DNA of 64,000 nucleotides from Candidatus Omnitrophota bacterium. GTDB lineage: Bacteria; Omnitrophota; Omnitrophia; JAHJGZ01; JAFGJY01. Where the stretch lies: positions 6,064 to 70,063 of the forward strand of contig JAFGJY010000116.1 of NCBI GenBank assembly GCA_016928875.1, given 5' to 3'. Numbering within the stretch: position 1 is the first letter of the stretch; the number at the start of each line of letters is the position of its first letter. Under the pieces are notes generated by a model. It was given only the letters and a program-made list of their open reading frames with translations. It was not told where the DNA came from and did no database searches. Shown here piece after piece: positions 2,993 through 42,567 of this stretch. The position numbers were made by a program, and so were the translations under genes.

Positions 2993-4114
2993 TTACCTTG
3001 TCTTCAAATATTCCTTGTATGCATGCAAGTTCCGCTTAATTTCCGCAAGCGAATCTCCGCCCGTTTTCTCGAGCAACGCCCGTGCCACTTCGAACGCAAC
3101 AGCGGCCTCAGCGATCACACTACACGCTGCTATGGCACACGTATCGCTACGCTCATAACTGGCCTCGGTGCTTTTCTTGGTCTTCATGTCAACCGAGGGC
3201 AATGGATTCTTGAGCGTTGAAATAGGCTTCTTGGCTATTCTCACCACGACTTCTTCGCCGTTGCTCATCCCGCCTTCAATACCACCGGCATTATTTGATA
3301 TGTGATGATAGCCGGCTTCTTTGTTGTACGCGATAGGGTCATGGACATACGACCCCGCGTGATAGCCGACATTCCACCCCAGGCCAAATCCAACCGCTTT
3401 AATGGCCTGCATGCTCATGAGAGCCTGCGCAAGCTGCCCATCCAATTTGCGGTCCGGTTGCACGTGAGAACCGATCCCGGCCGGCAATCCTTTGACCCTG
3501 ATCTCGATCACACCACCCAATGTATCGCCATTCTCTCGTGCTTCATCGATAAGCGCGATCATCTTTTCTTCAACGGCCGATGATACACAATTAAGCTTTG
3601 ATGTATCTTTCGCTTTTTCGATCTGTTCAAAGGTGATCATTTCACCGGATATCGATGCTGCTCCCACTTGAATAACATGAGATGCGACCCTCACCCTGCA
3701 TTCCACTAATAAAAGTTTACAGATCGCACCGATTGCGACATGCACCGCAGTACTGCGTGCACTGGCTCTTTCAAGAACAGCCCTGATCGAGGTATCGTAT
3801 TTTAGACTCCCTGCAAGGTCTGCATGTCCGGGCCGTGGGCAAACCAGATCAGGCATAGAATCGATCGTATTGTCTTTGTTCTTCACGATAAGCCCTATCG
3901 GTGCTCCGGTACTTACGCCTTTAAGGATGCCTGAATGTATCTCTACTTTATCATTCTCGATCTTTTGACGATCACCCCGACCATACCCCGCCTGTCTCCG
4001 TGCCAGATCAGCATTGATACGATCCTCTTTTATCTCGACACCGCTCGGCATCCCTTCCAGGATACCCATCAGACATGTACCGTGCGATTCACCGCTTGTT
4101 AAATAACGCAACAT
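2993..4114 (-). CDS. aroC: chorismate synthase
   Basis: 373 aa. N-terminus MLRYLTSGESHG and the GGISNG-like GGIEGGMSNG motif. Confidence 0.93.
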   Translation of the reverse strand: MLRYLTSGESHGTCLMGILEGMPSGVEIKEDRINADLARRQAGYGRGDRQKIENDKVEIHSGILKGVSTGAPIGLIVKNKDNTIDSMPDLVCPRPGHADLAGSLKYDTSIRAVLERASARSTAVHVAIGAICKLLLVECRVRVASHVIQVGAASISGEMITFEQIEKAKDTSKLNCVSSAVEEKMIALIDEARENGDTLGGVIEIRVKGLPAGIGSHVQPDRKLDGQLAQALMSMQAIKAVGFGLGWNVGYHAGSYVHDPIAYNKEAGYHHISNNAGGIEGGMSNGEEVVVRIAKKPISTLKNPLPSVDMKTKKSTEASYERSDTCAIAACSVIAEAAVAFEVARALLEKTGGDSLAEIKRNLHAYKEYLKTR

Positions 4115-9670: not shown

Positions 9671-11347
9671 TTACGCCATGCCGCCGATCATGCGATTGAT
9701 GGCCGACCCTGCCGGCACCATCGGGTACACATTCTCTTCCCGTTCAACGATGAAATGCAGGATCACCGGACCATCATGCGCGATCGCTTCTTTGATCGCC
9801 GGCTCAACATCTTCTTTACGTGCAATGCGGATCCCTTTGGCACCATACGCCTCGGCAAGCTTTATAAAATCAGGATTACCGGCCTGCAGGTCTGTCTCGG
9901 AATACCGTTTGCCATAAAACAATTCTTGCCATTGCCGCACCATACCCAGAAAACCATTATCCAAGATCGCGACCTTGACCGGGACTTTATAAAACACCGC
10001 TGTAGCAAGTTCCTGAATATTCATCTGTATGGAACCATCACCGGCAATGTCAAAAACGATCGCATCTGGCGCAGCAACTTGTGCACCGATCGCAGCCGGA
10101 AGACCATAGCCCATTGTCCCCAGACCGCCACTTGTAACGAGCGTTCGCGGTTTAGTGAAACCACACCATTGGGCTGCCCACATCTGATGCTGCCCCACTT
10201 CGGTCGCAATGATCGCCTTATTCTTAGTAAGCTTGCCGATCATCTCAATAATATACTGCGGACGGACCTTGTTATCATTCTTATATTTTAGCGGATACTT
10301 TTCCTTCCACTCCGCGATCTGTTTGAGCCATGATGCTGTCTTTGGACCCTTCACATATTTCTTCAGTTCAACCAATGCATCTTTTGCATTCGCGACGACC
10401 GGAATATCCACCTTAACGTTCTTTGAGATCGACGAAGGATCGATATCAATGTGGATTATCTTCGCATGCGGTGCGAATTCGTCGATCTTGCCGGTCACGC
10501 GATCATCAAAACGCGCCCCGACCGAAATAAGAAGGTCTGAATCCTGGATCGCATGATTCGCATATGCGGTACCATGCATACCCAACATCCCCAAGGACAA
10601 TGGATCGTCCTCTGGGAATGCGCCAAGACCATTCAATGTTGTTGTCACCGGGATCTGGGCTTCTCGTGCCAATGTCGTCAATTCTTTTGCCGCATTTGAA
10701 ATGATCACACCGCCACCGACATACAAGATCGGTTTTTTGCTATTAGTAATTGCTTCCGCTGCAATTTTTATCTGTTTGATATTAGGTTGCGTATGCGGGT
10801 TATAGCTCCTGATATAACATTTCTCAGGATACTTGAATTCCGCCTCAGCGAGCGTAACATCGACCGGAATGTCGACCAACACCGGCCCCGGCCTGCCTGT
10901 CTGTGCAATATAAAACGCCTCTTTTATGATCCGCGCCAGGTCATTGACGTCTTTGACCAAAAAATTATGTTTGGTTATCGACCGTGTTATGCCGACCAGG
11001 TCTGCTTCCTGAAACGCATCATTACCAATAAGAAAGGTCTTCACCTGTCCGGTAAAAGCAACCATCGGAACAGAATCCATATACGCCGTCGCGATCCCGG
11101 TCACCAGGTTCGTTGCCCCCGGTCCCGATGTTGCTAAACACACCCCAGCTCTGCCGGTAACACGCGCATAGCCATCAGCCATATGCGCCGCTCCTTGTTC
11201 ATGACGAACAAGAATGAAATTCAATGTACTTTTGTATATTTCATCAAAAATAGGAAGCACTGAACCACCGGGATATCCAAAGACGGTATCAACCTTCTCC
11301 CGCTTCAGTGCCTCTATAAAGATCTTGCTGCCTTTCATTTTCATCAC
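9671..11347 (-). CDS. ilvB: acetolactate synthase large (catalytic) subunit
   Basis: 558 aa, ThDP enzyme. [24 protein letters not shown] and [15 protein letters not shown] motifs. The start is GTG 11347 or ATG 11344, after SD AAAGGAG. Confidence 0.93.
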
Positions 11348-41587: not shown

Positions 41588-41693
41588 TATATAAGAACTT
41601 TATTATAATTAGTTTATACGCATTATAGGGCATTTAAGTAAAATACCATGCCTTTACGCCTGCAGGCAGGGACGTGATATTTTGTGAGGAAGC

Positions 41694-41723
41694 AATAAAA
41701 AAACCGATCTTTACGGATCGGTT
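41694..41723 (-). terminator. rho-independent terminator ending the tRNA operon
   Basis: Minus strand AACCGATC-cgtaaa-GATCGGTT followed by TTTTTTTAT. Confidence 0.85.
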
Positions 41724-41726
41724 AAA

Positions 41727-41892
41727 TGGAGCGGGAGAAGGCCTGTCTACCGACAGGTAGAGAATTGTCTACTACGTCTGCTGCATCGTGCAGCTTCCTG
41801 CGTAGACTCCCCTCGGTTGCCTGGCGTTCCCATCCTGGTCACTCTTCCTTTCGGCAGCAACCTCCTTTCAATTCCTATCTAAAAAAGAAAAA
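41727..41892 (-). ncRNA. unassigned GC-rich structured element with tRNA-like 3' end (acceptor-strand copy plus CCA)
   Basis: It lies between tRNA-Gly and the terminator. It has nested helices and ends ...CCTGTC-GGTA-GACAGG-CCTTCTCCCGCT-CCA, where the 12 nt CCTTCTCCCGCT are identical to the 3' end of tRNA-Gly. I cannot assign a known RNA family. Confidence 0.45.
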
Positions 41893-41963
41893 AGCGGGAG
41901 AAGGGAATTGAACCCTCGTAAGTAGCTTGGAAGGCTACGGCTCTACCACTGAGCTACTCCCGC
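41893..41963 (-). tRNA. tRNA-Gly (anticodon UCC)
   Basis: 71 nt. GCGGGAGTAGCTCAGTGGTAGAGCCGTAGCCTTCCAAGCTACTTACGAGGGTTCAATTCCCTTCTCCCGCT. Anticodon loop CT-TCC-AA. CCA is not encoded. Confidence 0.92.
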
Positions 41964-42151
41964 AGAAAGACAATTAACAATGAATAATTAAAAATGAGTA
42001 ATCACTATCGTATAAATGCCCGATAAAAAGTTCCACTAGCATTGGAACAATTATTTACACATTATCTTCTTGCATTTCACCTAGTGATACACAGCATTCA
42101 CTAATTCAAAAATAATTCATTATTAATTATGCATTACTCATTGCAGTTATG

Positions 42152-42237
42152 GTGGGGAGAGCAGGATTTGAACCTACGAAGGCTGACGCCAACAGATTTA
42201 CAGTCTGTCCCCTTTGGCCACTTGGGTATCTCCCCTT
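42152..42237 (-). tRNA. tRNA-Tyr (anticodon GUA)
   Basis: 86 nt with a long variable arm. GGGGAGATACCCAAGTGGCCAAAGGGGACAGACTGTAAATCTGT...CTCTCCCCACCA. CCA is encoded. Confidence 0.92.
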
Positions 42238-42245
42238 ATATCAGT

Positions 42246-42412
42246 AAGGATGAAGGGCAAAGGATAAAGGTTAAAGTGAACGAAAAAGATAGCTCTTTCA
42301 TCAAAAACGTTCACGGTAAACCTTCGATCTTGTCTATCAGCAAAACCGGATAACGCAACCAGAATTCATACATTCCGACCACTTCATCCTTTATCCTTTG
42401 CCCTTTATCCTT
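42246..42412. repeat. 25-bp inverted repeat bracketing the Thr-Tyr tRNA spacer
   Basis: aaggatgaagggcaaaggataaagg (42246-42270) against cctttatcctttgccctttatcctt (42388-42412), 24/25 complementary. An inner inverted repeat is GTGAACG (42276-42282) / CGTTCAC (42308-42314). Confidence 0.75.
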
Positions 42413-42420
42413 GTCTTCTC

Positions 42421-42496
42421 TGGAGCTGGTGATGGGACTCGAACCCGCAACCTGCTGATTACAAATCAGCTGCTCTACCAATTGAGCTACACCAGC
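42421..42496 (-). tRNA. tRNA-Thr (anticodon UGU)
   Basis: 76 nt. GCTGGTGTAGCTCAATTGGTAGAGCAGCTGATTTGTAATCAGCAGGTTGCGGGTTCGAGTCCCATCACCAGCTCCA. CCA is encoded. The T-stem has one C-A mismatch. Confidence 0.88.
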
Positions 42497-42538: not shown

Positions 42539-42567
42539 ACTATAACAAATTTTCACTTTTGTGTAAA
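42539..42567 (-). promoter_or_regulatory. sigma70-type promoter of the Thr-Tyr-Gly tRNA operon
   Basis: Minus strand TTTACA (42562-42567), 17-nt spacer, TATAGT (42539-42544), about 40 nt upstream of tRNA-Thr. Confidence 0.55.

Follow-up and report, generated by a model that had tools for sequence, protein, structure and literature searches.

Genetic elements that use an integrase to enter tRNA genes leave a complete tRNA together with a partial copy of its 3′ end, an arrangement recognised as their attL/attR signature (PMC9897764). In one classical 'sublocation' of integrases the repeat spans the T-loop and everything beyond it up to the 3′ gene end; phage Ms6, for example, uses the T-loop of tRNA-Ala (PMC1762012; PMC9897764). 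Here we describe a similar arrangement on a much smaller scale, found in a 64,000-nucleotide (nt) stretch of Candidatus Omnitrophota DNA, the whole of which we call the window. The segment in question lies on the minus strand behind tRNA-Gly(UCC) and ends in a second copy of the 3′ end of that tRNA. It is one of a family of structured, protein-less units tied to the 3′ side of tRNA genes, whose copies have arms matched to the local tRNA, a duplicated tRNA end, presence and absence differences between relatives, tandem arrays and relics. On balance, we take the segment for a diverged copy within a so far undescribed family of small, structured insertion elements of the tRNA 3′ side that encode no protein and are, in the view that we favour, non-autonomous and moved in trans.

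The 3′ end of tRNA-Gly reads ...GGTTCAATTCCCTTCTCCCGCT, its final 12 nt being CCTTCTCCCGCT (41893-41904, the proximal repeat copy), and is followed by TTTTTCTTTTTT. An earlier note, made from the sequence of the window, had pointed to an exact copy of this 3′ strand followed by CCA within a GC-rich segment, and both observations hold: the 12-mer recurs at 41730-41741 with CCA at 41727-41729, 151 nt separate the two copies, and the segment has 54% G+C compared to 45% for the window. We compared the locus to three contigs (L083, L084 and L086) whose pyrD homologues are 76-77% identical to that of the window and whose gene order is the same (radical-SAM gene, tRNA operon, pyrD-pyrF); among GTDB species representatives, no pyrD homologue was closer than 50% identity, so that the lineage appears to be missing from them. 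The pyrD product of the window itself is 100% identical to a protein of an Omnitrophota metagenome-assembled genome (MAG). In all three contigs tRNA-Gly reads ...CCTTCTCCCGCTCCA and its CCA leads directly into the terminator, with no insertion and no match to R1, the covariance model of the family. Relative to these empty sites the window has 163 additional nt between ...CCCGCT and CCA. The terminators that follow tRNA-Gly-CCA in L083, L084 and L088 align as orthologues of the one behind the distal copy of the window. Since the tRNA-Gly of the relatives runs straight into CCA and terminator, we conclude that the distal copy, its CCA and the terminator are the original end of the gene. A unit consisting of the 3′ end copy, a linker, an arm and a core separates this original end from position 55/56 in the T-loop of tRNA-Gly. 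The lack of the element in the three nearest relatives also shows that it is not a conserved component of the operon. The earlier note had further placed it in the slot that thrT-tufB occupies in the Escherichia coli operon thrU-tyrU-glyT-thrT-tufB; the operon in the relatives simply ends at tRNA-Gly, and so the element does not replace thrT-tufB. A second pair of sites is found at tRNA-Ser(TGA), which is followed by a full unit plus a partial unit in L092 and by an empty 29-nt spacer in L110, the seryl-tRNA synthetases (SerRS) of the two contigs being 88% identical. The orthologous loci of Pelobacter seleniigenes and of two 5-Mb genomes were uninformative, no tRNAs adjoining serS there.

A contig with the same synteny and a pyrD 67% identical to that of the window (L089) carries two segments related to the window element. 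The first lies behind tRNA-Thr and leads into 18-19 nt copied from the 3′ end of that tRNA; the second lies behind tRNA-Gly with its CCA and a terminator, and leads into the 12-mer CCTTCTCCCGCT and a second terminator. The window and both L089 segments have in common, in register, a 33-nt stretch in which a hairpin stem differs in sequence yet stays paired. By searching with a pattern of 20 specified bases taken from the shared core stretch we matched 19 metagenome loci; locally, the pattern picked out the known copies alone. With the window and L089 included, 18 of the 23 instances are real and represent about 14 distinct sequences with ~125 nt of similarity; the pattern matches in L093, L102, L097, L103 and L104 lie in unrelated coding sequence and were set aside as chance. 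Every copy with upstream sequence on its contig has a tRNA on the same strand 20-65 nt upstream (Pro-TGG, Ser-GGA, Ser-TGA, Ser-GCT, Gln-TTG, Thr-TGT or Gly-TCC), and within 4-5 nt downstream of its core lies a copy of the 3′ part of that same cognate tRNA. R1 scores the copies at 72-166 bits overall and the canonical ones at 148-166 bits, and finds a single copy across the 64 kb of the window. L092 belongs to the Desulfuromonadales, its SerRS being 86-88% identical to those of Pelobacter, Malonomonas and Desulfuromusa. Because copies are carried by this contig and by a second Omnitrophota contig, the family spans at least Omnitrophota and Desulfuromonadales. The element is absent behind some tRNAs, among them the tRNA-Arg of L090 and the four window tRNAs besides tRNA-Gly. 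In most of the metagenome loci it lies within ~1 kb of the contig end, and the flanking genes are of the housekeeping kind (pyrD, pyrF, radical SAM, FxsA, Ogt, SerRS, arginine-kinase-like, aminotransferase, CysNC and RNase H).

Canonical copies are built in the order tRNA, linker B, arm a′, core and copy X, and the whole element measures ~125-190 nt. Linker B (17-63 nt) is A/T-rich and trailer-like, differs in length and sequence in every copy, and holds a terminator in the tRNA-Gly unit of L089 and in L090, L095, L106 and L107. The 6-14 nt of arm a′ are an exact reverse complement of cognate tRNA sequence that starts at T54 and reaches into the 3′ strand of the T-stem and the acceptor. This relation holds in 14 of 14 copies, including those with the four variant T-loops TTCAATTCC, TTCGATTCC, TTCAAGTC and TTCGATCC, and the arms of L090, L092 and L098 also match three to five tRNA-specific stem bases. 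The final two As of the arm face T54 and T55, which are present in the tRNA and missing from copy X; in none of the 14 copies is the match of the arm to the genuine tRNA worse than its match to copy X. The core of ~105 nt comprises helices P2, P2a, P2b and P3 and has the invariant unpaired segments AGGGGAG, CGCAGGA and GACGNAG. Copy X starts at C56 or G57 and ends at position 73, at position 76 or within the trailer (32 nt in L096), and in tandem units it extends across linker B and enters the unit that follows, with lengths of 73 and 118 nt in L092. The length of the direct copy thus takes values of 12, 18-21, 32 or more nt, and of over 70 nt in tandem units. Inspecting the linkers by eye, we noticed that those of L094 and L099 contain, 15-25 nt upstream of the arm, sequences (CGATC and GATCTC) that can pair with the arm (GGATCG and GGGATC). 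The L099 pairing has a GAAA loop, and the Ser-GCT unit of L092 has a similar CGAATC...GATTCG. Such linker sequences may be leftover T-loop fragments or part of an alternative hairpin.

Folding 13 distinct copies jointly with RNAalifold gave a structure in which P1 is formed by the arm and the start of X, P2 contains tandem G-A, P2a and P2b are hairpins and P3 has a conserved internal loop. In this structure 96.6% of the cells are paired, and compensatory double changes occur in 16 of the 32 pairs; the P3 helices (5 and 6) have six pairs with compensatory changes. None of 500 shuffles reached any of the observed pairing measures, and control alignments slid out of register were 25-49% paired. 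G-U pairs (15 cells) outnumber A-C mismatches (~4), from which we take the folded strand to be the tRNA-sense strand. Indels of 1, 4 and 7 nt within the family leave no conserved open reading frame (ORF). A scan of the window with Rfam 15 (4227 covariance models, gathering thresholds) returned only five tRNAs. At E<=10 across 41600-42050 the element drew only 10-15-bit noise matches, and at E<=1 across six loci with canonical copies no family covered it. ARAGORN and the Rfam tRNA and tmRNA models made no cloverleaf or tRNA-like call within 41727-41892, the duplicated part of the tRNA being the 3′ strand alone. Among the Rfam models there was no match to a group I or group II intron or to a self-cleaving ribozyme, and the core is only ~105 nt long. 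The family is likewise undescribed in the searchable literature on small tRNA-associated structured or mobile elements, on Geobacter multicopy sequences and on the motif surveys of the Breaker laboratory.

The window copy is laid out as follows, from the promoter of the tRNA operon to its terminator.

42539-42567, minus strand: sigma-70-like promoter of the tRNA operon, TTTACA-17-TATAGT with a TG extension
42421-42496, minus strand: tRNA-Thr(UGU)
42150-42235, minus strand: tRNA-Tyr
41893-41963, minus strand: tRNA-Gly(UCC), intact and with no encoded CCA (ARAGORN; Rfam tRNA, 70.9 bits)
41876-41892, minus strand: linker B, TTTTTCTTTTTTAGATA, between tRNA-Gly and the element, missing from the empty sites of the relatives
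41867-41875, minus strand: 5′ arm a′, GGAATTGAA, the exact reverse complement of tRNA-Gly T54-C62 (TTCAATTCC)
41744-41881, minus strand: entire element as matched by R1 (109.1 bits, E = 4.6e-31)
41815-41862, minus strand: domain P2, GGTTGCT...GGCAACC with an internal hairpin; P2a of the canonical copies is deleted here
41807-41814, minus strand: conserved unpaired purine stretch GAGGGGAG (canonical form AGGGGAG), from the alignments
41767-41807, minus strand: domain P3, outer stem GTCTAC/GTAGAC plus hairpin GCTGCA-CGA-TGCAGC
41772-41802, minus strand: 31-nt signature of the family, inside P3
41755-41767, minus strand: 3′ strand of P1, CAATTCTCTACCT, in which CAATTC is tRNA C56-C61 and the start of the distal copy
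41742-41757, minus strand: extra hairpin CCTGTC-GGTA-GACAGG, which splits the distal tRNA copy
41727-41741, minus strand: distal copy CCTTCTCCCGCT with CCA, the original and now displaced 3′ end of tRNA-Gly
41695-41723, minus strand: intrinsic terminator of the operon, AACCGATCCGTAAAGATCGGTT followed by a T run (intrinsic-terminator-like, hairpin at 41723-41702)

The 5′ strand of the closing helix P1 consists of arm a′ and the adjoining AGATA (41876-41880), and the conserved internal loop of P3 has CGCAGGA on its 5′ side and GACGTAG on its 3′ side. Within the family this copy is diverged, having lost P2a and having its X split into CAATTC and CCTTCTCCCGCT. The helices that the earlier note had drawn are all there: the closing helix AGATAGGAATTG/CAATTCTCTACCT, the GGTTGC...GCAACC helix (41862-41857 with 41820-41815), the GTCTAC...GTAGAC hairpin (41807-41767) and the hairpin CCTGTC-GGTA-GACAGG. 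Some of its interpretations, however, need correcting. The last-named hairpin, taken for a T-arm-like structure, is a lineage-specific insert (CCTGYC...GRCAGG) seen only in the two tRNA-Gly copies, those of the window and of L089, the latter reading CCTGCC...GGCAGG. At its start the core has a GAAGCGGAGC that is conserved in the family; the 'Shine-Dalgarno-like' GAAAGGAGG is aligned with it and is no ribosome-binding site. The duplication of 12 nt is exact, as claimed, and really extends to ~18 nt, CAATTC (41767-41762) being its T-loop part, parted from CCTTCTCCCGCT by the inserted hairpin. A Shine-Dalgarno site or a small ORF was rejected as well, since the motif is the GAAGCGGAG region of the family and the indels break the reading frames. 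We also observe an ATG-initiated ORF of 61 amino acids (aa) running antisense across the element (41726-41911, plus strand), against whose coding a protein the family indels of 1, 4 and 7 nt speak. The 'ctttacac...ttgttatagtct' promoter motif of the operon is also found upstream of tRNA-Thr in L083 and L084.

The distribution of CCA and terminators bears on which of the two tRNA-Gly ends is native. In the window, the proximal Gly copy alone is without CCA, which is encoded by the other two tRNAs of the operon and by the distal Gly copy. In L089 the pattern is reversed: tRNA-Thr, tRNA-Tyr and the distal Gly copy are without CCA, and the proximal Gly copy alone has it, plus a terminator of its own. 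A terminator of the native type follows the distal copy in both. From these patterns the proximal 3′ end looks imported and the distal one displaced, which by analogy is the geometry of Campbell-type integration at tRNA genes (PMC9897764; PMC1762012). Other copies give evidence of activity and decay. Tandem arrays in L092, L098 and L106/L108 finish with a 5′ partial unit, and the L092 array is still followed by the tail of the native tRNA end (ggctccgtcca). L094 and L099 have flanks that are ~98-100% identical and cores that are 96.6% identical, together with linkers that are nearly unrelated and X copies that are mutated differently; between L091 and L096, the variable patch is the trailer copy after X. 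Point mutation does not account for such a pattern, which calls for turnover or for independent events. Distal copies carry more changes than the flanking DNA. Two further loci are of note as derivatives. In L100 (1574-1760, minus strand), a tRNA-Pro has kept only its 3′ half, which at the T-loop passes directly into internal element sequence (ggttcga|ctgaatgtcgg); this is a rearranged or dead copy, a fusion/deletion derivative. Behind tRNA-Ser(GCT) of L110 (4073-4200) lies an internally deleted relic, GGTTCGAcGCGGAGC...CCGCGTCAG-TGGGCGG followed by T-loop-like fragments, which R1 missed.

In the mechanism that seems likeliest to us, an enzyme encoded elsewhere would act on the elements in trans. 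The exchange, Campbell-type or site-specific, would have its left boundary in the T-loop, with the same geometry as that of the tRNA-targeting integrases. Such an exchange would regenerate a complete tRNA and push the native end downstream. The enzyme would recognise a folded single strand of tRNA-sense polarity, in which the arm would pair with the T-loop/T-stem sequence (P1) and so rebuild a duplex copy of the target beside the conserved core. The mobile intermediate could be either DNA or RNA. Being located inside the transcription unit, the element would also be transcribed along with the tRNA.

A number of observations weigh against movement in trans. Among the ten proteins encoded beside the copies there is no integrase, reverse transcriptase or transposase. 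In BLAST searches of plasmids and phages only the tRNA part of the window element found matches and a canonical copy found none, and pattern scans of IMG/VR with the core pattern and the canonical copies gave zero matches; no vehicle for horizontal spread came to light in the phage, plasmid and IMG/VR collections. The window, 64 kb of the genome, holds a single copy. To our knowledge, a single recombinase serving seven or more tRNA cores is without precedent among tyrosine integrases, and movement in trans does not account for the fit of both arm and copied 3′ end to every new tRNA. Duplications that run past the tRNA into the trailer (L096, L091 and L090) fit duplication in situ better than import. 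The presence and absence differences could stem from loss, as recombination between the direct repeats would precisely restore an 'empty' site; given that the more distant L089 shares the tRNA-Gly sub-type, the insertion may be ancestral, with L083, L084 and L086 having lost it. Lastly, a 105-nt core conserved across phyla with RNA-like features (G-U pairs and tandem G-A) would fit a cellular RNA function as well. The last point underlies a reading we consider rather unlikely, in which the unit is a vertically inherited structured RNA derived from the tRNA 3′ trailer, with a function linked to its cognate tRNA (for example, an arm that is antisense to the T-arm and affects tRNA folding, processing or quality control) and with rare spread by recombination. 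Such an RNA would agree with the strong covariation, with the location on the tRNA strand and, in the window, in the tRNA transcription unit, with the complementarity of the arm to the adjacent tRNA and with the housekeeping neighbours. It would agree also with the high conservation of the core, which differs at ~3% of positions between L094 and L099 and (by eye) at ~6 of 105 positions among the Desulfuromonadales copies, and is still recognisable in Omnitrophota. A cellular gene fits poorly with tandem partial units, with placement behind terminators in several loci and with a duplicated tRNA end that decays instead of being maintained in sequence. The element is moreover dispensable, since close relatives lack it and relics and deletion derivatives exist, and not every tRNA carries it (tRNA-Arg in L090, four other window tRNAs). 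The structured small RNA (sRNA) of a tRNA operon that the earlier note had proposed therefore survives in part: a covarying family fold on the tRNA-sense strand with no Rfam match stands, conservation in the operon does not, given three relatives without it, and what was taken for a tRNA-like 3′ end is part of the adjacent tRNA in duplicate, a copy that decays at other loci.

It is possible, and in our estimate a minority case, that the unit is an RNA-based mobile element with an internal guide. Here, the arm would pair with T54-N67 of the tRNA or pre-tRNA and the core, as a ribozyme or as a handle for a reverse transcriptase, would join its own 3′ end to C56, giving a product arm-core-tRNA (56 to 3′ end). 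This chimera would then be copied to DNA and recombine at the tRNA gene via the shared 3′ segment, duplicating that segment on both sides. Such a route is consistent with an arm that begins exactly at T54, spans the 55/56 junction and, in each of 14 copies, pairs no less well with the real tRNA than with the distal copy, with a constant left boundary of the copy (C56 or G57), and with a right boundary that varies as RNA 3′ ends do (position 73, position 76, 12-24 nt into the trailer, or the terminator end). The tRNA-sense covariation including G-U pairs, the excess of changes in distal copies, as expected from error-prone copying, and the position within the tRNA transcription unit point the same way. 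A predicted fold of the co-transcript, in which the arm pairs with the T-loop of its own tRNA and the 5′ acceptor strand with the distal copy, is also in line with it, although this minimum-free-energy (MFE) fold disregards tRNA tertiary structure. On the other side, no reverse transcriptase lies near any copy, no known ribozyme family matches so that catalysis is conjecture, several loci have a terminator between tRNA and element with no space for a separate promoter, and the linker and the imported-looking proximal tRNA end are left unexplained. In its more general form, to which we give an equally low probability, the element would be a selfish guide-directed mobile RNA or folded strand of at least two phyla, with no adjacent protein gene, that homes to T-loops by means of a programmable 5′ arm and is joined at C56; joining would proceed through its own catalysis or through a recruited reverse transcriptase or recombinase of the host or of distant origin. 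We regard it as very improbable that the segment is the scar of a larger prophage or genomic island in tRNA-Gly, cut down to ~150 nt by deletion. A complete tRNA and a partial 3′ copy around foreign DNA are the classical attL/attR signature (PMC9897764) and the distal copy is the native end, yet 14 or more independent loci with seven or more different tRNAs have the same covarying ~105-nt core at the same distance from the copy, with no residual coding sequence and no phage or plasmid similarity. Independent deletions could not yield the same conserved core, which contradicts the scar. The att-type duplication suggested in the earlier note is thus right in that an insertion duplicated the tRNA 3′ end and that the distal copy, CCA and terminator are original. 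It is wrong as to a larger decayed island, ~125-190 nt being the native size of a dedicated non-coding element found behind many different tRNAs. That the feature is not real at all, the 12-mer arising by chance or by local slippage duplication beside incidental hairpins, has a negligible probability. We estimate that ~0.8 exact 12-mer repeats within 200 nt are expected per 64 kb, a third exact copy of CCTTCTCCCGCT (11293-11304, plus strand, inside a 558-aa ORF at 9671-11347, minus strand, with no element nearby) is a chance match, and the single-sequence fold z-scores are modest (-2.2 to -3.6). The repeat is nevertheless significant because it is placed at a tRNA 3′ end and 14 or more related loci repeat the arrangement with their own tRNAs, and chance is refuted by the R1 match (E = 4.6e-31), the architecture at other tRNAs, the strong covariation and the orthologous empty sites.

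Several more specific candidates were tried and rejected. A poly(A)-tailed retro-insertion on the plus strand was discarded as the T run is unique to the window copy, and a group II intron domain 5 as no model matched and the internal loop does not fit. Adenine mutagenesis of the distal copy, of the kind associated with diversity-generating retroelements (DGRs), was dismissed as the changes are not at adenines. Insertion sequences (ISs) of the IS200/IS605, IS91 and IS110 types do not duplicate their target, and elements of these types were excluded on that ground.

The same operon contains other apparent small insertions. Its Thr-Tyr spacer (42236-42420) is 185 nt long compared to 14-56 nt in the relatives, and includes a 40-nt inverted repeat (42246-42285 and 42373-42412, 85% complementary) made of CCTTTATCCTTTGCCCTT-like repeats, resembling an insertion of a miniature inverted-repeat transposable element (MITE). 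The Tyr-Gly spacer (41964-42149) measures 186 nt compared to 14-16 nt in L083 and L084, with a flanking 32-nt inverted repeat (41971-42002 and 42112-42143) and a terminator-like hairpin at 42048-42030. In L086 this spacer holds a related insert of ~240 nt (107-346), and the two represent a second small insertion family of the operon. Upstream of the operon promoter, L084 has a near-perfect inverted repeat of ~27 nt (3419-3520, aaataaggggacaccctacttaattcc ... ggaattaagtagggtgtccccttatttc) that is absent from the window.

Mobile DNA classically lands in tRNA genes, but its known representatives there are large and bear an integrase, whereas the unit described here has ~125-190 nt and is conserved across phyla. 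Mobility in trans would make it a new type of non-autonomous element and would point to an enzyme that acts on the T-loop as DNA or RNA. Should it move by way of RNA instead, a new mobile RNA with a guide, and possibly a ribozyme, would be at hand, and as a cellular RNA it would act as a regulator that is widespread and linked to tRNAs. The element explains orphan tRNA 3′ fragments beside tRNA genes, and R1 can be used for annotating the family. The element may add to breaks in assemblies, which tRNA genes alone could also cause.

Compared to integrase islands, the likeness lies in a complete tRNA and a displaced partial 3′ copy that stand as direct repeats around the insert, in a repeat that extends from the T-loop to the 3′ end of the gene, and in a proximal end that is apparently supplied by the element, sometimes with a terminator. 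Williams (2002), as cited in PMC9897764, reportedly described this combination of a complete tRNA plus a partial 3′ copy as the attL/attR signature. In contrast to the islands, which measure 5-100 kb, the element has 125-190 nt and contains no integrase or other gene (151 nt between the repeats in the window). One core serves seven or more tRNAs, an arm is antisense to the T-loop, and the fold is conserved with G-U pairs; the mimic of the site within the element is 110 nt from the copy, and there is no left core site beside the crossover.

Folded single-stranded recombination sites, namely the attC sites of integrons and the attP(+) of CTX phage that XerCD uses, may be a further parallel, being likewise short (57-150 nt), non-coding, conserved in structure and strand-specific, with inverted arms that pair into a duplex recombination site. 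The present element differs in having no integron integrase or attI context, in targeting the tRNA T-loop and in its branched core, which is strongly conserved in sequence and is no simple bulged hairpin. With MITEs, cis-mobilizable elements (CIMEs) and short interspersed nuclear elements (SINEs) it shares the small size, the lack of coding capacity, inverted terminal arms, direct repeats of the target, empty and filled sites and a presumed enzyme acting in trans. Unlike in MITEs, the arms match the local tRNA and vary between copies and the interior is the conserved part, the 'target duplication' is variable (12 to >45 nt) instead of having a fixed length, and the element is absolutely specific for tRNA 3′ ends; searches of plasmids, phages and IMG/VR revealed no parent element. 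The internal guide of group I introns and the exon- and intron-binding sites (EBS/IBS) of group II introns offer another parallel, namely a 5′ segment that is complementary across the insertion point and lies beside a structured core, with the 3′ end of the element abutting the downstream target sequence. The core of the element is far smaller than that of these introns and has no Rfam intron match, and the tRNA upstream is complete, leaving nothing to splice. The sRNAs from 3′ external transcribed spacers (3′ETS) of tRNA operons, such as 3′ETS-leuZ of E. coli, resemble the element in lying in the 3′ trailer and in being co-transcribed with tRNAs; they are short, species-specific, unstructured sponges, whereas the element forms a structured family across phyla with a duplicated tRNA end and differences in presence and absence.

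The window copy is placed in the new family by its R1 match, the tRNA upstream on the same strand, the arm GGAATTGAA opposite TTCAATTCC and the copy CAATTC...CCTTCTCCCGCT. The displaced tRNA 3′ copy is the hallmark of a known kind of event. What sets the unit apart is its size, the absence of genes, the covarying core, the arm antisense to the T-loop and the range of tRNAs concerned, which together are unlike integrase islands, MITEs, introns, attC sites and 3′ETS sRNAs.

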